Shown one piece after another: positions 6,635 to 62,223 of a stretch of DNA of 64,000 nt (position 1 is the stretch's first letter; each line of letters begins with the position of its first letter). The stretch comes from an uncultured Candidatus Saccharibacteria bacterium (GTDB lineage: Bacteria > Patescibacteriota > Minisyncoccia > Phycocordibacterales > CAYSCM01). The notes under the pieces are model-generated. The model did no database searches, was not told where the DNA came from, and was given only the letters and a program-made list of their open reading frames with translations. The stretch is from assembly GCA_964429815.1 (NCBI GenBank), contig CAYSCM010000003.1:29297-93296 (forward strand), read 5' to 3'. The position numbers and the translations under genes are program-made.

Positions 6635-7033
6635 ATGACTGACGCAAAATACATCGAAGGAATCGGCCGACGCAAGACCTCTATCGCACGAGTGCGCATT
6701 ACCCCCGCAGGAAAGATTAGTGTCGATATCAATGAAAAAGATCTAGCGAACTATTTCCCGGTAAAAGAACTCCAGCATGCGGCTCTTTCACCGATTGAAC
6801 TTGCCGCTATTCCACAGAAATTTAAAGTAACCGTTAAGCTTATGGGCGGCGGTATTTCTTCCCAGGCGGAAGCGATGCGTCATGGTGTGGCTCGCGCTCT
6901 TGTCGCCTATGATCCGCAGCTTCGCAAGCTTCTAAAATCCGCCGGTTTCCTCAAACGCGATCCCCGCGCGAAAGAGCGCCGCAAGTTCGGCCTCAAGAAG
7001 GCCCGCCGTGCGCCGCAGTGGTCAAAACGCTAG
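6635..7033 (+). CDS. rpsI: 30S ribosomal protein S9
   Basis: GRRKTSIARVRI...GGGISSQAEAMRHGVARAL...RDPRAKERRKFGLKKARRAPQWSKR. Confidence 0.95.
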   Translation: MTDAKYIEGIGRRKTSIARVRITPAGKISVDINEKDLANYFPVKELQHAALSPIELAAIPQKFKVTVKLMGGGISSQAEAMRHGVARALVAYDPQLRKLLKSAGFLKRDPRAKERRKFGLKKARRAPQWSKR

Positions 7034-24635: not shown

Positions 24636-24756
24636 CGTAGCACTGTGCGTATCACGCTCGCTCAGAGTTCCTGGAGCGCTACAATAGGGGAGAGGTCGAT
24701 TTTATACGCCAACGATACTTCCTTTAGATATGATGAAAGGACACAGAGGTCTTCAC

Positions 24757-24948
24757 ATGGTGACGTTCACACTCGTCATCATCGGCGCCCTCAACTGGGG
24801 TGTGTATGCGCTTACCGGTTGGGAAATCGGCCAGATCTTCGGAGGCATGAACGCCTCGGTCTCGCAGATCATCTACATCCTCGTCGGGCTATCCGCCGTC
24901 TATGAGGTGTTGATGCACAAGAAGCATTGCCGGATGTGCAATCCATAG
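24757..24948 (+). CDS. DUF378-family small membrane protein
   Basis: MVTFTLVIIGALNWGVYALTGWEIGQIFGG...; an AGAGG ribosome-binding site sits 8 nt before this ATG. The ORF track starts at 24730. Confidence 0.6.
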   Translation: MVTFTLVIIGALNWGVYALTGWEIGQIFGGMNASVSQIIYILVGLSAVYEVLMHKKHCRMCNP

Positions 24949-24960
24949 ACTTTTCTCAAA

Positions 24961-24990
24961 AAATCCCGGAGCGTTGGCCTGGGATTTTTT
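24961..24990 (+). terminator. intrinsic terminator after the DUF378 gene
   Basis: AAATCCCGG-(loop)-CCTGGGATTT followed by a run of six T. Confidence 0.5.
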
Positions 24991-25135
24991 GTTGGCACCC
25001 CCGGTGCGTCCGGTTCCCCGGCTCTTGATAGTAAGCGTCGCAAAAGATATATTGTGCGACGCTTATCTATTTTCTCACGAACCTGTGAGGCTGCATCTGG
25101 AATACCCTGCCCTATACATCCTTATGTCTCTCTAC

Positions 25136-25181
25136 CCGCAAACACAAAAAGCGCCGATGGGGGCGCTTTTTGTGTTTGCGG
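25136..25181. terminator. long perfect hairpin, probably a bidirectional terminator
   Basis: 20-bp perfect stem CCGCAAACACAAAAAGCGCC-gatggg-GGCGCTTTTTGTGTTTGCGG. It lies immediately 3' of the minus-strand gene ending at 25185. A second 11-bp hairpin sits at 25032-25064. Confidence 0.55.
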
Positions 25182-25184
25182 AGC

Positions 25185-25748
25185 TTACCTGGCGGCAACT
25201 TCCGCTTTGGGACCCCAACATTTCTTGGATGAGACCCATGGATCGGAACCTTGCTTCTCGTAGAGCCTTCGGGCGTATACGAGATTGTCCGTAAGCTTTT
25301 CAAGATCCAAACCGAGCTTGGTGGCTATGTCTTTGTGGTATCGCTCGTTGATCTGCATGACACCAACGTCGTTTGAGTCTATTTCGCCTCGAATAACGAG
25401 GCCATTTTTATCGTACTGGCGCATGTGCGATTCGCATCGCGCGATGTCGACCATGATCGGTATATCCGTGAAGTAGGCCTCGACGAGTTGCTCGACGCCC
25501 ACATTAGAAGCCGTCGCGCCCGGAGCGACCGTCGCTTGCGCGATGGCCGCGCTTGAGTTCCCGAGTGACCCCGAGAGCGCGATGGCGATAATTGCAAGAA
25601 TGATAAGCCTTTTCTCTAGTGTTCTAAGTTCCCTCCAGATTCCAGCGACTAAATCGGATTCTGGCGCGATCAGGTGCCTGATCGATTTGGAGCTCAGACG
25701 CTTTAAGCGTCGGCTAAACAAAAATCCCGCGCACGCGAGATTGCGCAA
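25185..25748 (-). CDS. lytic transglycosylase (SLT domain) with an N-terminal TM anchor
   Basis: CESHM...DVGVMQINERYH matches the SLT family-1 catalytic Glu/Ser and MQIN motifs. Hydrophobic LIILAIIAIALSGSL anchor. The start codon is uncertain. Confidence 0.6.
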   Translation of the reverse strand: MRNLACAGFLFSRRLKRLSSKSIRHLIAPESDLVAGIWRELRTLEKRLIILAIIAIALSGSLGNSSAAIAQATVAPGATASNVGVEQLVEAYFTDIPIMVDIARCESHMRQYDKNGLVIRGEIDSNDVGVMQINERYHKDIATKLGLDLEKLTDNLVYARRLYEKQGSDPWVSSKKCWGPKAEVAAR

Positions 25749-34172: not shown

Positions 34173-35234
34173 CTAGTCCCGCTCGTTAGGTTTCGCCAAT
34201 TCTAATGTCTCAAAACCCGCCGAAGCGCCAGCGATTTTGAGTACGTCCTTATCGATTTTCTTGAGCTCCTTTCCCGCTGCGTTGTAATGATTCACCGTCG
34301 TCGAAAGCGCATTTCCCACTTTTACATAATAGTCTTCGTAGGCCTTGAGATGCTTTCCCAAGTCCTCAACTTTTGTAATGATCTGTGAAGCCTTCTCTTC
34401 AATCTGCATCGCCTTAAGTCCCTGGAGCACCGTCTGCAGATACGCCAAGAACGACGTTGGAGAGACAATAATGACTCTCTTCTGCTGGAACGCATATTCG
34501 ATAAGGTCACGTGTGTTTACTTTTACTGATCCGACCTGTGCCACAAGTAGGTCGTAATAGATAGCCTCATGCGGAATAAACATAAACGCAAAATCAAGCG
34601 TTCCCTCAGAGGGTTTTACGTACTTGCTTGTCTCATCAATACGGCTTTTCAGGTCAGCTTTAAAAGCCTTTTCAAGTCGCTCGCGTTCTACCGGATCCCG
34701 CTCTTCAGCGAGGCGATTGTAATTTTCAAGCGAGAACTTCGAGTCAACGGGAATGATTTTGTCTTTCACAAATACGACTGCATCGACGATAGTGCCGTCC
34801 TTGAATGGATACTGCATTTGGAAGCTCCCTGGCGGCAGAACATTCTTGAGAAGGGTCTCGAGATAGTACTCTCCGAGAATTCCGCGCTGCTTAGGGTTCT
34901 TGAGGATGTCCTCGAGGGATTGAAGCTGATCGGCAAAGGAAACAACCTGGCGGTTGGTCTCGTCGAGTTTTGTAAGTCCCTCGGTCACCTCGCGAATGAG
35001 CTTCGCCGATTCGCCCAGCTGTGTGCGCACCGTCTCGTGCACCTGTCGACTCGACTCCGCAACGCGGCTATCAAGAGTGCGCGCAAGTTCCTGGATCTGA
35101 TTTTGAATGAGAACCAGAGAATTATCCTCATTGACACTTCCCCTTCCCTGACGGCGCATCATCACCCATACAAAAATGGCATTGCCTACCGCAAGGAGGA
35201 CAATCAGCGCGATAAGCAAACCGAGGTTTTCCAT
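34173..35234 (-). CDS. rmuC: DNA recombination protein RmuC
   Basis: N-terminal TM helix, a long coiled coil, and a C-terminal RmuC nuclease-like domain (FMFIPHEAIYYDLL...VIIVSPTSFLAYL). Confidence 0.85.
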   Translation of the reverse strand: MENLGLLIALIVLLAVGNAIFVWVMMRRQGRGSVNEDNSLVLIQNQIQELARTLDSRVAESSRQVHETVRTQLGESAKLIREVTEGLTKLDETNRQVVSFADQLQSLEDILKNPKQRGILGEYYLETLLKNVLPPGSFQMQYPFKDGTIVDAVVFVKDKIIPVDSKFSLENYNRLAEERDPVERERLEKAFKADLKSRIDETSKYVKPSEGTLDFAFMFIPHEAIYYDLLVAQVGSVKVNTRDLIEYAFQQKRVIIVSPTSFLAYLQTVLQGLKAMQIEEKASQIITKVEDLGKHLKAYEDYYVKVGNALSTTVNHYNAAGKELKKIDKDVLKIAGASAGFETLELAKPNERD

Positions 35235-55065: not shown

Positions 55066-55145
55066 TTGTTCAGAATAGCAAAGAATACAAAATCGGCCGG
55101 CCTCCTGTGGGGAGACCGGCCGAGATAGGAAACGCCTAGCGCCTT

Positions 55146-55502
55146 TTACGGACGATCGGCGCCGGCGAGCGCATCGGGAGCCGCTTCTTCTTCCCGCGGG
55201 CCCCTGACAATCGACTTTATAACAATTGCCAAGGAGCTCAACAGAAAGAGAACCGCTGCCGTCAAAACGAGCACGAAGCTCATCATTCTGAAAGGCAGCT
55301 TGAGGTCATCAGCGCTCGACGAGGGAATATCCCCCACCATGAACCCGACGCCGAGCACAATGACGAGGACCCCGACGCTCACCCACAGGGCGAGCTTGAG
55401 ATCGACCAGCATGAGCGCTAGGCCCATGAAGGCGACAAGTATGGCGGGTAGATAGATCACCGCCATGTAATGCACATCGTACATGCTTCCCTCCAATTTC
55501 AT
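55146..55502 (-). CDS. hypothetical membrane protein (3-4 TM)
   Basis: A hydrophobic ORF with no known motifs. The start is uncertain. Confidence 0.4.
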   Translation of the reverse strand: MKLEGSMYDVHYMAVIYLPAILVAFMGLALMLVDLKLALWVSVGVLVIVLGVGFMVGDIPSSSADDLKLPFRMMSFVLVLTAAVLFLLSSLAIVIKSIVRGPREEEAAPDALAGADRP

Positions 55503-58342: not shown

Positions 58343-60244
58343 ATGCATTTGGTCGAGGTTATTCCGATAGCCCGCGGCATAAGCACTGAAGTGCTCTCCT
58401 ACTTTACAGGGAAGCCTATCTCAGCCGGCGAAATAGTGAAAGTCCCCGTGCGTACTCGGATTATTCCGGCGATGGTCGTCGCCGTGCGCTCCGCCTCCGA
58501 GCTGAAGGCGGATATACGCAAAGCGCCTTTTGAAATAAAAAAGCTTGAAGAAATAGTCGCCAAACGCGTCTTTCGAAAAGAATTCGTCGAAACCGCCGCG
58601 GTGTGCGCCGAGTATTTCGCTACTACGACCGGAGCGGTCCTCGCTTCCCTTCTTCCCAAGGCACTCCTTACTTCTCTCCCTGAGCTGCCAGAGCTCGGTG
58701 AATCACTGAAGCACCGACAACAATTCACTCCGGAGCGCATTATCCTCCAAGCGCCGCTTTCGGAGCGGCTCTCTCACTACAAGAGCCTCATTCGGGAGGA
58801 GTTTGCCCGTGGTCGCTCTGTTGCCATTGTCGTACCCACCATCCAGGACGGCACCGTTCTCGAGAGCGAGCTTTCCCGCGGCATCGAAGCGTTTACCTAC
58901 TTTTTCCATACCGACGTACCCCGCAAGAAAATCCTTGAGAGGTGGCGGCAGCTCGCAGAAGATCCGCATCCCATACTCACGATTATGACTGGCTCGTTTT
59001 TAGGACTGCCCCGCAACGATCTAGGAGTGCTTGTCGTTGAGCGTGAGAGCGCTCGGGGCTACAAATTACAATTCCGACCATACCTCGATATCCGAGTGTT
59101 CGCTGAACGCTACGCGGGAGCTCTTGGGGCGCGCTTCATTCTTGCCGATATGCCGCTTCGCGTTGAGACACTCGGCCGCATGGTGGGTGGCGAGGTCGAG
59201 GAGTTCGGAAAGCTCCGTGCTCGTGCCGTGAGTTCTGCAACCTCTTCCGTTATCGACGCGCGACGTCCGACGGAAGCCAAGAAAAAAGCGTTCGAAACGC
59301 TGACGCCCGAGCTGCGAGAGGCTCTCGGAAAGATCCTCACGGAGGGGAAACGGGCATTCCTTTTTACCGTGCGACGCGGTCTTTCTCCCGTGACCGCCTG
59401 TGGCGATTGCGAGAGCATCGTCACGTGTAGCGTTTGCGACGCGGCGGTCGTCCTCCACAGGGCGGGAAAGGAGAACGCGTTCGTATGCCACTCATGCGGG
59501 GCGGTGCGGAGCGCACATGAAAAATGTAAGACGTGCGATAGTTGGAAACTGGTGACGCTTGGTATCGGGATCGAGCGCGTGCGAGAAGAGCTCTCTTCCC
59601 TCTTTCCCGATGTTCCACTCTTCGTGCTCGAGCGCGAAACGGCGAAAAATCACAAAGAAGCGGTCGCTATTGCAAAAAAATTCTACTCAACCGCCCCGGC
59701 GATACTCCTTGGCACAGAGCTCTCGTTTCCGTATGTCGAAAAAGAAGTCGCTCTCTCTGCGATTGTCTCTGCCGATACGCTTCTGTCGGTACCTGAGTGG
59801 CGGACTCAGGAGAGACTATTTTCGGCGCTTCTTGCGGTGCGCGGATTTGCCAGAGAACACTTTTTCATACAGACACGCGAACCAGAGCAGCCGACTATTG
59901 CGCTCGCTCGCGACGGCAACATCATCGAATTTTATAAAGCGGAGCTCGCGCGCAGGAGCGAGTTTCGCTACCCGCCGGCGACCGTGCTCATCAAGCTCAC
60001 GATCGAAGGGACCCGTAGTCGTATCGCGGCAGGCATCGAGACGCTCACGAAGGAGTTCGGTCCATACGGGTTTCTGGTGTACGCCCCATCCGTTCACCTC
60101 GGTCATGGGAACTATCTCGCCCATGGGCTCCTGCGGATCACCAAGGCGGCGTGGCCCGACGCGGCCATAGTGCGCAAACTGCGCGCGCTGTCGCCCGAAT
60201 TTGCCATCGACGTTGAGCCGCAGAATCTGCTCTCGGCCTCTTGA
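58343..60244 (+). CDS. priA: primosomal protein N' (PriA)-like, Walker A apparently degenerate
   Basis: N-terminal 3'-DNA-binding-like domain. The helicase core position reads QAPLSERLSHY where GxGKT is expected. The PriA Cys-rich Zn region is present (CGDCESIVTCSVCDAAVVLH...CHSCG...CKTCDS). Confidence 0.7.
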   Translation: MHLVEVIPIARGISTEVLSYFTGKPISAGEIVKVPVRTRIIPAMVVAVRSASELKADIRKAPFEIKKLEEIVAKRVFRKEFVETAAVCAEYFATTTGAVLASLLPKALLTSLPELPELGESLKHRQQFTPERIILQAPLSERLSHYKSLIREEFARGRSVAIVVPTIQDGTVLESELSRGIEAFTYFFHTDVPRKKILERWRQLAEDPHPILTIMTGSFLGLPRNDLGVLVVERESARGYKLQFRPYLDIRVFAERYAGALGARFILADMPLRVETLGRMVGGEVEEFGKLRARAVSSATSSVIDARRPTEAKKKAFETLTPELREALGKILTEGKRAFLFTVRRGLSPVTACGDCESIVTCSVCDAAVVLHRAGKENAFVCHSCGAVRSAHEKCKTCDSWKLVTLGIGIERVREELSSLFPDVPLFVLERETAKNHKEAVAIAKKFYSTAPAILLGTELSFPYVEKEVALSAIVSADTLLSVPEWRTQERLFSALLAVRGFAREHFFIQTREPEQPTIALARDGNIIEFYKAELARRSEFRYPPATVLIKLTIEGTRSRIAAGIETLTKEFGPYGFLVYAPSVHLGHGNYLAHGLLRITKAAWPDAAIVRKLRALSPEFAIDVEPQNLLSAS

Positions 60245-60268
60245 CTCCTGCCACCGTTAGGGTATAGT
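60241..60268 (+). promoter_or_regulatory. putative sigma70 promoter P1 overlapping the priA stop
   Basis: TTGACT-16 nt-TATAGT. Confidence 0.5.
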
Positions 60269-60477
60269 CCTTTCTGGAATCGTTGCGGATGCTTCCCTGA
60301 CCTTCTCCCAGAGGAGAGGGTGCGAGAGCGTTCGCTTCGCTGTGGGGTCGGCTTCTCCCCGGGGCCGACCCCATACCACCCTTAACCTTTTTCTACAGGA
60401 AACGCGGCGGCGATACCCCTCGCCTCCGTGTCGTGACGCTCGGATTCCTCAGGCCGAGCGTTACATGCCCGGGCGAA

Positions 60478-60520
60478 GCCAGGCGGCGGTCCCCTCCCGC
60501 TCGCCTGGCTTTTATTTTTA
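60478..60520 (+). terminator. intrinsic terminator T1
   Basis: GCCAGGCG-(16-nt loop)-CGCCTGGC followed by TTTTATTTTTA. Confidence 0.65.
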
Positions 60521-60548
60521 TACCCACAGTTTCTCCCCTTCCGTGCCG

Positions 60549-60576
60549 TTGACGGGAGCGTCTCGTGCGATATAGT
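60549..60576 (+). promoter_or_regulatory. putative sigma70 promoter P2
   Basis: TTGACG-16 nt-TATAGT. Confidence 0.5.
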
Positions 60577-60779
60577 TTCCTGCGGACCGTCGTACTTCTA
60601 CCCATTCGCAGCTCTCCGGTGCAAGACCGTTTTGAGAGCTCGCGCGGGGCCGGCTGGTGTTCGAACATTAACCGCCGGCCCCGGTCCTCTTCGAATGCGC
60701 GACTTCCCTCCTCTCCCCGCGTGGGGGTCGCGTATGGTGCGTGCCCGGTGCTGTCCCCCCTCGGGCGCGCCCATGTCCT

Positions 60780-60820
60780 GGGCCAGGTGGCGATACCCCT
60801 CGCTGCCTGGCCCTTTTATT
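60780..60820 (+). terminator. intrinsic terminator T2, homologous to T1, 35 nt upstream of def
   Basis: GGGCCAGG-(18-nt loop)-CCTGGCCC followed by TTTTATT. The loop/stem sequence GGCGATACCCCTCGC is shared with the T1 module. Confidence 0.65.
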
Positions 60821-60854
60821 GTGCGTATTGCGCCAAGGAGCGAGAGGATATTGA

Positions 60855-61391
60855 ATGAGACCCATGGTGAAAATCGTCCAAAACGGCAACCCAGTACTTC
60901 GCGAGATTGCGAAGCCCGTTTCTCTTTCGACCATCAAGTCCGCGTCGTTTCGAAAAGTCCTCAAGGATATGGAGGTGGCGCTTTCCTCGCAGGAAGACGG
61001 GGTCGCGCTCGCAGCCCCACAGATAGGGCTTTCGCTACGCCTCTTTATCGTTTCAGGGCGTATTTTTGAAAAAACAAAAGGGGACGTTAAGCGTAGCCGC
61101 AAATCGGACCTTATCTTCATCAATCCCGAGCTGATCCGTCTTTCAAAAAAACGAAAGGTGATGGACGAAGGGTGTCTGTCTGTGCGTCCGCTCTACGGCA
61201 ATGTAAAACGCGCCGAGAAAGCGACCATCCGCGCCTACGACGAAAAGGGAAAACTCCATGAGTACGGAGCAAGCGGCCTTCTCGCGCAGATATTCCAGCA
61301 CGAAATGGATCATCTGGAGGGCATTCTCTTTGTAGATAAAGCGACCGACGTGCTTGAACTTCCGAAGGAACATGCAAAAGTCAAAGCCTAG
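60855..61391 (+). CDS. def: peptide deformylase
   Basis: GVALAAPQIG, EGCLS and QHEMDHLEG motifs; AAGGAG ribosome-binding site. Confidence 0.95.
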   Translation: MRPMVKIVQNGNPVLREIAKPVSLSTIKSASFRKVLKDMEVALSSQEDGVALAAPQIGLSLRLFIVSGRIFEKTKGDVKRSRKSDLIFINPELIRLSKKRKVMDEGCLSVRPLYGNVKRAEKATIRAYDEKGKLHEYGASGLLAQIFQHEMDHLEGILFVDKATDVLELPKEHAKVKA

Positions 61392-62223
61392 GTTCGCTTT
61401 CTTCGGCACCCCGCGTTTTGCGACCATCGTCCTTGATGAGCTCGCAGCGGCCGGATACCTCCCCGCACTCATCGTCACCGCCCCGGACGCTCCGGTCGGG
61501 CGCGGGCTTACGCTCACTTCCCCTGCGGTGAAGCAGTGGGCTGATCGACACGATATTGCCTCCATTCAACCAACCTCTCTTGCGCAATTACCAAAAGAAC
61601 TTACCGGTTCGTGGGATTTCTTTGTCGTCGCCGCGTATGGAAAACTTCTGCGCAAAAACGTTCTCGACATACCCACGCAAGGGACCCTCAACGTACATCC
61701 ATCGCTTTTGCCAAAACTGCGCGGTGCCTCCCCTATTGAGTCAGCCATTCTTACCGACGAGAAAGAAACGGGTGTCTCCATCATGCTCCTCGATGAAAAA
61801 ATGGATCACGGTCCCATTCTTGCGCAAAAAAAGGTAGCACCAAAACCCTGGCCTCCTCGAGCCAGCGAGCTGGAAGACACTCTCGCCCACGAAGGGGGTC
61901 GCCTGCTCGCAGTGGTGATCGCGCCGTGGCAGGGCGGCGAGCTGAATCCGACGGAGCAGGATCACACGAGGGCGAGCGTCACCAAAAAAATTGAGAAGGG
62001 GGATGGACTCATCGATCTTACCGCAGATCCCTATCAAAACTTTTTAAAAATTCGAGCTCTTGAAGGTTGGCCGGGAACCTATTTTTTCCATCAAAAACAG
62101 GGGAGGAGAATTCGCGTCAAGATCGTGGATGCAACCTATACTCCCGGCTCACTTACCATTACGCGCGTTATTCCGGAGGGTAAGCGCGAGATGAGCTACC
62201 CGGATTTTTTGCGCGGAAAATAA
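61372..62223 (+). CDS. fmt: methionyl-tRNA formyltransferase
   Basis: FFGTP...NVHPSLLPKLRGASPI (SLLP motif) and a C-terminal domain. GAAGGAA ribosome-binding site. 20-nt overlap with def. Confidence 0.9.
   Translation: MQKSKPRFAFFGTPRFATIVLDELAAAGYLPALIVTAPDAPVGRGLTLTSPAVKQWADRHDIASIQPTSLAQLPKELTGSWDFFVVAAYGKLLRKNVLDIPTQGTLNVHPSLLPKLRGASPIESAILTDEKETGVSIMLLDEKMDHGPILAQKKVAPKPWPPRASELEDTLAHEGGRLLAVVIAPWQGGELNPTEQDHTRASVTKKIEKGDGLIDLTADPYQNFLKIRALEGWPGTYFFHQKQGRRIRVKIVDATYTPGSLTITRVIPEGKREMSYPDFLRGK

Follow-up and report, generated by a model that had tools for sequence, protein, structure and literature searches.

Two candidate C-rich-loop small RNA genes in tandem between priA and def of a Patescibacteria genome

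Does the long spacer between priA and def in an uncultured member of the Patescibacteria (Candidate Phyla Radiation, CPR) hold small RNA (sRNA) genes in their own right, or a leader that controls the def-fmt genes behind it? The question arises in a 64,000-nucleotide (nt) stretch of contig CAYSCM010000003.1 (positions 29,297 to 93,296), called the window here, in which 610 nt separate the two genes at a GC content of 63%, compared with 54% across the window. A preliminary description had offered both readings: two paralogous sRNA genes, or tandem attenuator- or riboswitch-type leaders of def-fmt. The locus is real, structured and non-coding, and it most likely represents a new Patescibacteria family of C-rich-loop sRNAs, present here as two tandem genes. 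On balance, the spacer is read below as two independent genes for trans-acting sRNAs of the 6C, sX13 or cuckoo kind.

Each half of the spacer carries the signals of a separate transcription unit. The two near-consensus sigma70 promoters noted in the preliminary description, P1 and P2, are present, both matching the consensus at 10 of 12 positions and lying 308 nt apart. They are the sole promoter-like sites in 59500-61500, where shuffled sequences give 0.4, and represent two of only eleven that score at least 10/12 when both window strands are counted (128 kb of strand sequence); several of the other nine directly precede genes. The priA stop codon, TGA (60242-60244), falls within the -35 hexamer of P1. 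The two terminators are likewise confirmed, with stems at 60475-60512 and 60780-60813, as are the two GGGG(U/C)CGGC hairpins, whose arms are perfect over 10 bp (60343-60352/60364-60373 and 60645-60654/60674-60683). Each unit would be transcribed separately from its own promoter and ended by its strong intrinsic terminator, giving two discretely expressed RNAs. Their parts are listed here, with the 5' end of the unit 1 RNA predicted from the -10 box; L002 denotes the locus of a close relative and L089-L093 five soil contigs, both considered below.

60241-60268, plus strand: promoter P1, TTGACT-16-TATAGT, 10/12 (promoter scan)
60275-60522, plus strand: unit 1 RNA, predicted at about 245 nt, with A1, B1, C1, D1 and T1 (minimum free energy (MFE) fold; orthology with L002)
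60281-60339, plus strand: hairpin A1, a long two-tier stem topped by CCUUCUCC/GGAGAGGG (fold; no detectable conservation in L002)
60341-60375, plus strand: hairpin B1, 15 bp, loop UCCCC (fold; lower stem CUGUGGGGUCGG kept in L002, top of the stem different)
60402-60431, plus strand: hairpin C1, loop UACCCC(UC) (fold; stems read directly from the sequence)
60433-60464, plus strand: hairpin D1, 11 bp, loop AUUCCUCAGG (fold; loop and closing pairs identical in L002 and L089-L093)
60475-60522, plus strand: hairpin E1, which is terminator T1 (stem 60475-60512, loop UCCCCUC), with U-tract UUUUAUUUUU (-28 kcal/mol)
60549-60576, plus strand: promoter P2, TTGACG-16-TATAGT, 10/12 (promoter scan)
60583-60822, plus strand: unit 2 RNA, predicted at about 240 nt, with A2, B2, C2, D2 and T2 (fold; ortholog not found)
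60607-60644, plus strand: hairpin A2 (fold of unit 2)
60645-60683, plus strand: hairpin B2 (fold of unit 2)
60695-60735, plus strand: hairpin C2, loop with CCCUCCUCUCCCC (fold of unit 2)
60736-60772, plus strand: hairpin D2, loop with GUCCCCCCUC (fold of unit 2)
60780-60821, plus strand: terminator T2, 14-bp stem at 60780-60813, loop AUACCCCU, tract UUUUAUU (-29 kcal/mol; outer stem homologous to T1)
60842-60866, plus strand: def start region, with Shine-Dalgarno (SD)-like AGAGGA at 60843-60848, weak -10-like GATATT at 60847-60852 and ATGs at 60855 and 60864 (the gene caller behind L005 places the start at 60864)

Both units fold far more stably than expected from their composition. Unit 1 (60275-60520) reaches an MFE of -130.1 kcal/mol (z -7.16) and unit 2 (60583-60822) one of -124.8 kcal/mol (z -6.07), and none of 200 shuffled sequences folds as well in either case; four GC-rich hairpins in a row, followed by the terminator hairpin, are predicted for each. 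Measured in 200-nt windows, the fold excess of the spacer (z -7.1 on the plus strand, compared with -3.5 on the minus strand) is beaten by one of the 13 other intergenic gaps of at least 120 nt. That gap, at 24900-25190, separates convergent genes and is filled by a stack of three bidirectional terminators, each an almost perfect palindrome (z -8.3, minus strand). The structured region at 24636-25184 was considered as a second RNA candidate and rejected as stacked terminators only.

The loops of these hairpins share a recognisable vocabulary. CCCCTC occurs four times in 60275-60822, or 7.3 per kb against 0.30 per kb in the window, an enrichment of about 24-fold, and all four CCCCUC copies are apical, in the loops of C1, T1, D2 and T2. 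CCUCC or UCCUC appears in the loops of E1, D1 and C2 and in the linker between B2 and C2. Loops containing CCC were counted in three of six hairpins in unit 1, three of six in unit 2 and six of nine in L002, compared with about one in shuffled sequences, of which 3, 14 and 0 of 200, respectively, reach the observed counts.

Comparison with related genomes shows which parts of unit 1 have been kept. The host is of the Paceibacteria/Minisyncoccia type, and its PriA (58343-60244) matches such organisms only. Among 5.8 billion proteins there is a single close relative, 71% identical (P0002; loci L002-L004), with the remaining matches at 43% identity or less. A scan of a genome collection with PriA alone gave no match, and a scan with a PriA alignment gave 80 Paceibacteria loci, taken as one genome per species and each 36-41% identical. 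The 420-nt priA-def spacer of L002 contains one unit of about 350 nt (z -7.2), which begins with TTGACA-16-TATAGT (11/12; 6913-6940) and ends in a terminator. Unit 1 is orthologous to L002 6947-7298, with a local score of 35 against 20.3 +/- 2.6 in shuffles (0 of 300 reaching it).

The preliminary description had proposed looking for covariation in homologous spacers, and for unit 1 this was found: loops are identical between the two genomes and stem changes are compensatory. In hairpin C, three stem positions have changed on both sides with pairing intact. The loop and closing pairs of hairpin D, CGGAUUCCUCAGGCCG (16 nt), are exactly kept, while three consecutive pairs of its stem are exchanged (UCG/CGA to CAU/AUG-type). 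The loop of hairpin E, CGGUCCCCUCCCG, is also retained, on a hairpin that is the terminator in the window and internal in L002, where it has no U-tract and is followed by another C-rich-loop hairpin and a different terminator. Hairpins have therefore been gained or lost while loops persisted. In an alignment of the D-E region from seven sequences, pairing holds in 94.7% of cells, and both partners have changed in 8 of 19 pairs; 0-1 of 500 shuffles reach the observed values, and slid controls are 21-51% paired. Three Logan assemblies and three L002-type contigs have identical spacers and hence add no covariation.

Are the two units copies of each other? The preliminary description had called them clearly diverged duplicates, which is borne out for the terminators alone. 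Similarity between T1 and T2 is significant, at a local score of 38 against 12.9 +/- 2.3 (0 of 1000 dinucleotide shuffles reaching it), whereas the unit bodies are not alike beyond chance (18 against 18.6 in shuffles) and the similarity of the promoter regions is also within chance. An 18-nt repeat links hairpin C1 (60406-60423) with the inner stem and loop of T2 (60786-60803) at 17 of 18 nt. Judged from these alignments, units 1 and 2 have architecture, length and loop motifs in common without detectable similarity in the sequence of their bodies. For unit 2, no ortholog was found and no significant similarity to L002; its sole link to that locus is a 10-nt motif, CCCUCCUCUC (CCCTCCTCTC), which lies in the apical loops of window C2 (60705-60714) and the first hairpin of L002 (6965-6974), on unrelated stems.

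The position between priA and def is a recurrent one. The order priA, def, fmt is retained in 56 of the 80 related loci, and 32 of these 56 have spacers of 55 nt or less. In about ten of the 56, a promoter at the priA end is followed by an RNA whose hairpins have pyrimidine-rich loops, and then by a terminator (L007, L008, L009, L010, L019 and L073; longer versions in L046, L071 and L081). This RNA consists of a hairpin with a pyrimidine-rich loop, e.g. UUCUCCUUUCU, and a terminator hairpin with another such loop, and in most of these loci def has a leaderless promoter of its own, with a -10 box 6-8 nt ahead of its ATG. The window and L002 share the layout, with a promoter at or overlapping the priA stop, pyrimidine-loop hairpins, a terminator and then def, all on the same strand. 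In several Paceibacteria the final codons of priA (VD(P)ESLL) double as the -35 element of the slot promoter, TTGAC, which lies around the priA stop in L008, L009, L010, L019 and L073.

Within this slot, change has been rapid. L073 (5894-6087) contains two tandem short sRNA copies. Both comprise a -10 box, a hairpin whose loop is of the CUCCUUUC type, and a terminator, and the duplication is independent of, and parallel to, that of the window. L046 and L081 keep promoter, terminator and def promoter around diverged bodies. Sequence homology across the slot is not demonstrable: of two covariance models, R1 (built on the D-E module) finds none of these RNAs, and R2 (described below) finds only L071, at 28 bits. 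When the short Paceibacteria RNAs are aligned with MAFFT, their first hairpin falls in an inconsistent register. It appears that RNAs of the slot evolve fast, with loops kept, stems drifting compensatorily, hairpins gained and lost and units duplicated in tandem. The slot loops GUUCUCCUUUCU, AUCUCCUUUCGA and AUCCUCCCCCUUUCU resemble the 3' end of a Bacillus-type 16S rRNA (...CCUCCUUUCU). As a separate observation, the 16S rRNA gene of a Campbellbacteria metagenome-assembled genome (L007 544-3539, minus strand) is interrupted by group I intron-like insertions, with another after about position 1400, and its 3' end falls outside the locus; interrupted 16S rRNA genes are usual for CPR bacteria.

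Part of unit 1 is also found outside the CPR. The D and E loops supplied a 22-nt pattern for one metagenome scan, whose matches were the L002 contig, one apparent chance match and five GC-rich soil contigs, which are assigned to uncultured Alphaproteobacteria by their Xth protein. In the five soil contigs, both motifs form the loops of two consecutive hairpins (H1 and H2) of an RNA of about 130 nt. A promoter (TTGCTT-N17-CATATC) and a terminator of its own flank this RNA, which is located between pyrF and xth.

L089 2888-3016; L094 2333-2463; L096 2278-2406; L097 110-238; also L090, L091, L092 and L093: alphaproteobacterial sRNA with C-rich loops, upstream of xth and preceded by pyrF or a GATase gene

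The loops and closing pairs of H1 and H2 are identical to those of D and E in unit 1 and L002, in the same order and at similar spacing, and the terminator hairpin aligns to L002 hairpin F. Identity extends beyond the search pattern to 16 nt around D and 13-19 nt around E (up to 19 with L002). The alphaproteobacterial RNA differs in having three or four hairpins only, whereas the CPR RNAs have the extra 5' hairpins A-C, and in promoter type, genomic context and phylum. Model R2 was built solely on the alphaproteobacterial members. It gives L002 a score of 44.8 bits over the full model (E 7.5e-8) and window 60427-60519 one of 27.8 bits (E 3.7e-4); since these members were retrieved with a loop pattern derived from the CPR sequences, the identity arises partly by construction and the scores are partly circular. 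The more distant members L094, L096 and L097 have different H1 loops. With R1, neither the window, unit 2 included, nor the set of 80 Paceibacteria loci yields a further copy of the module, and the only match of either model to unit 2 is T2.

An R2 match at 55085-55194 on the minus strand was rejected as an ordinary terminator. This terminator (55085-55125, minus strand; C-rich loop UCUCCCCACAGGA) belongs to a 118-amino-acid (aa) open reading frame (ORF) of unknown function, which is preceded by a 12/12 consensus promoter (55568-55539, minus strand) and then a 5'-untranslated hairpin (CGUCCCCGCAUUCCGUCGGGGC) abutting its ATG. In viral contigs the full D-E pattern is absent and three 16-mer matches are due to chance, and phages were accordingly rejected as vectors of the module. 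A perfect palindrome of about 105 nt (GAGGACAGAGGACGGACGACAGACGACGG...) also lies between the alphaproteobacterial sRNA and xth in L089 (3015-3119), and microRNA precursor models match it by shape only.

The occurrence of the D-E module in a free-standing sRNA unconnected to def-fmt supports the reading of unit 1 as a small RNA. From the sequences, horizontal transfer or a shared target is a possible source of the exact loop identity between the two groups. A more specific idea, which seems quite improbable, is that a two-hairpin seed module, within a highly expressed multi-hairpin sRNA of ultra-small, probably episymbiotic Patescibacteria, reflects cross-phylum transfer, or mimics a host sRNA at G-rich sites, possibly in host mRNAs; in closer alphaproteobacterial relatives the loops of the module have already changed. 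Taken with the separate promoter and terminator of each unit, the loop-conserved ortholog and the def promoter that follows the slot RNA in relatives, the module supports the first half of the earlier proposal of two paralogous sRNA genes; the paralogy itself stands at the terminators only.

How do these RNAs compare with known families? At the gathering score, an Rfam search of the whole window finds three tRNAs and no other family. The Rfam search proposed in the preliminary description was run on both strands of the spacer (60150-60900) at E <= 10 and repeated on the spacer of L002, on six short-RNA loci and on the loci from Alphaproteobacteria. In none of them, the pyrF-xth sRNA included, does a family attain its threshold, and the weak matches are to assorted C-rich-loop sRNAs, the rest being to microRNA models by shape only. 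Of the 12 weak matches in the spacer, the best are 6C and sX13. 6C (RF01066; B11 in mycobacteria) matches hairpins A1-B1 below threshold at 23.9 bits against a gathering score of 47 (E = 0.82). Like the window RNAs, it has C-rich loops on GC-rich hairpins, and these bind G-rich sites resembling ribosome-binding sites (RBSs) without Hfq or ProQ (PMC6486639). Unlike them, it carries runs of six or more C on two loop-bearing hairpins, is found in Actinobacteria only and is about 60-100 nt long. sX13 of Xanthomonadaceae (RF02232) matches weakly over D2-T2, at 22.0 bits against a gathering score of 50 and thus also below threshold; its three hairpins carry loop motifs of 4-5 C that target G-rich mRNA sites (PMC3771888), and it resembles the window RNAs in these C-loop hairpins, differing in length and phylogenetic range.

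The closest parallel in evolutionary behaviour is with the cuckoo RNAs of Alphaproteobacteria (CcsR1-4/RSs0680 and the alpha-r14 RNAs SmelC397/NfeR1), in which two to at least four adjacent hairpins carry anti-SD-like C/U-rich loops (PMC4615179). Their stems vary by compensatory change, conservation is scant past close relatives, hairpin and copy number vary, serial genes are possible, and pairing with SD-like mRNA sites has been proposed (PMC4615179). The conserved loops, free stems and undetectable homology across the priA-def slot match this pattern (PMC4615179), as does the row of adjacent hairpins, and CCCUCCUCUC, carried by C2 and the first hairpin of L002, is close to the cuckoo motif CCUCCUCCC. 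However, the window RNAs lack an exact CCUCCUCCC, with CCCUCCUCUCCCC in the C2 loop its nearest equivalent and CCCCUC their commonest motif; they are longer (about 240 nt, five hairpins), belong to a Patescibacteria host and have no DUF1127 gene context, and the CcsR1 and ar14 models give no match in the window at E <= 10. In terms of the wider class of sRNAs with C-rich or anti-SD loops, the units are, by sequence prediction, non-coding RNAs with their own promoters and Rho-independent terminators, and their C-rich/CCUCC motifs are apical and, in unit 1, conserved while the stems covary.

These parallels suggest a mode of action. The apical loops, and some linkers, would display C/U-rich, anti-SD-like motifs (CCCCUC, CCUCC, UCCUC) that pair in trans with G-rich, SD-like stretches of mRNAs and so block translation initiation, and the G-C-rich loop contacts may dispense with a chaperone. 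RNAIII and the Rsa RNAs have been reported or proposed to act by loop-SD pairing of this sort. Leaderless mRNAs appear common in the genome of the window: many genes have no SD and instead a -10-like box (TATACT, TAGTAT, TAGCAT and others) ending 6-8 nt 5' of the ATG, for example at 449, 1699, 7536, 20876, 34173-35234 (minus strand) and 58343, and SD-like sequences are found chiefly before operon-internal genes and def. The targets may therefore be operon-internal, SD-led genes.

Several points weigh against two trans-acting sRNAs. The ends of the transcripts and their abundance are predictions from the sequence. With so many leaderless, SD-less genes in the window, the pool of SD-type targets may be small, and neither RNAduplex against 60 start regions of the window nor a search for exact 8-mer complements in the window singles out a target; def ranks third for the GAUACCCCUCGC loop, within the distribution of the 60 regions. 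Unit 2 has no ortholog and its structure rests on thermodynamics alone, while unit 1 is known from two CPR genomes only, so that covariation in hairpins B and C comes from two sequences. C-rich loops are not unique to the spacer either, given the ordinary terminator at 55085-55125. Finally, the promoter scan has no site of 9/12 or better in the interval from T2 to def, which itself has a clear SD in a genome of many leaderless-looking genes, and unit 2 thus also occupies the position of a leader.

This last point opens the way to cis control, in which unit 2, or both units in series, would form the 5' leader of def-fmt and set its expression, either because termination at T2 (and T1) is regulated or because the C/U-rich motifs sequester the def SD, with the terminated products as by-products. 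Such a leader is unlikely, although much of the layout suits it: the units are co-oriented with def, about 30 nt separate the end of T2 from the def SD, and an RNA before def recurs in other Paceibacteria. Some def-fmt transcription may be T2 read-through, in view of the SD and the lack of a promoter passing the scan. The region of the def RBS shows complementarity to the 3' arm and loop of T2 at 13 of 16 positions, and the predicted read-through RNA pairs the def SD with UCCUCUUCG at 60685-60693, the UCCUCU linker. In this model the RNA could act on def in cis through either pairing, but complementarity to an SD is expected by chance in a CCUC-rich RNA.

Other evidence speaks against regulated leaders, and the attenuator or riboswitch half of the preliminary description fares poorly. 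The spacer has no match at E <= 10 to ZTP/pfl (RF01750), THF, T-box, 6S, SRP or any riboswitch or cis-regulatory family. The resemblance to ZTP suggested there (UCGUGAC ... CGCCUGGC) dissolves into motifs inside ordinary hairpin stems; the units share with that riboswitch only a position upstream of folate-related fmt and a terminator, and lack its pseudoknotted two-subdomain architecture. Truncated folds without the 3' terminator arm yield no antiterminator and read-through folds keep T1 and T2 intact, although MFE folding cannot exclude structures induced by a protein or ligand. Unit 1 is followed by a new promoter, P2, and therefore cannot be a leader. In L002, L007, L009, L010, L019, L046, L073 and L081, the terminated RNA is followed by a def -10 box 6-8 nt before the ATG, and the weak GATATT of the window (60847-60852) aligns with that box in L009. 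Conservation falls in apical loops and not at helix junctions, and in Alphaproteobacteria the D-E module precedes xth, unlinked to def.

Less probable still is that the loops, instead of pairing with mRNAs, titrate an RNA-binding protein (e.g. ribosomal protein S1 or a KH/cold-shock-type protein) or free 30S subunits, much as CsrB/RsmZ do with CsrA. The units are multivalent, with four to seven similar loops per RNA and CCCCUC present four times, and tandem copies and strong promoters suggest a high dosage; the want of an outstanding mRNA partner in the window also suits titration. Nevertheless, no candidate protein partner is encoded beside the locus, and the motif is anti-SD-like, with comparable RNAs documented as pairing with mRNA (PMC6486639, PMC4615179).

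It is very unlikely that the spacer has no dedicated function and is a GC-rich stack of terminators or insulators, perhaps partly acquired horizontally, that isolates priA from def, with promoter-like hexamers that arose by chance or give rise to spurious transcripts. That another gap in the window with an even stronger z-score is mere stacked terminators lends this some colour, as do the fast-evolving hairpin bodies, the missing ortholog of unit 2 and the near absence of a spacer in 32 of 56 related genomes. However, two of the eleven best promoter matches would then stand correctly upstream of the structures by accident, one of them conserved in L002, and a bidirectional terminator folds symmetrically on both strands, whereas this spacer does not. 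Loops that are identical across genomes whose PriA proteins are 71% identical, on stems that change compensatorily, and the enrichment of loop motifs are likewise at odds with a passive insulator.

A small protein encoded by each unit is extremely improbable: open frames of 77 aa (60342-60575) and 74 aa (L002 7032-7256) do share a GTG start in hairpin B, but they diverge at the D loop and are restored solely by non-triplet indels (BLASTP E = 1.3), have no Pfam match, SD or ATG, continue in the window across T1 and P2, and are of a length expected in GC- and pyrimidine-rich sequence, so that the earlier statement of no credible ORF holds and no conserved small ORF with an RBS was found in either unit.

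Two independent C-rich-loop sRNA genes thus remain the preferred reading of the spacer. C-rich-loop sRNAs are already well known as a kind, and the mechanism itself would not surprise a specialist. Their setting is another matter. To our knowledge, few classical regulators are known in the Patescibacteria, whose genomes are small, and a literature search found no report of regulatory small RNAs in this group. The family would be an addition to Rfam for use in annotation, and the loop identity between CPR and alphaproteobacterial RNAs makes one ask if modules of regulatory RNA can pass between a lineage of symbionts and its possible hosts. A recurrent, strongly promoted slot for sRNAs with anti-SD-like loops would offer a first way into the study of post-transcriptional control in the CPR, a very large group of uncultivated bacteria.

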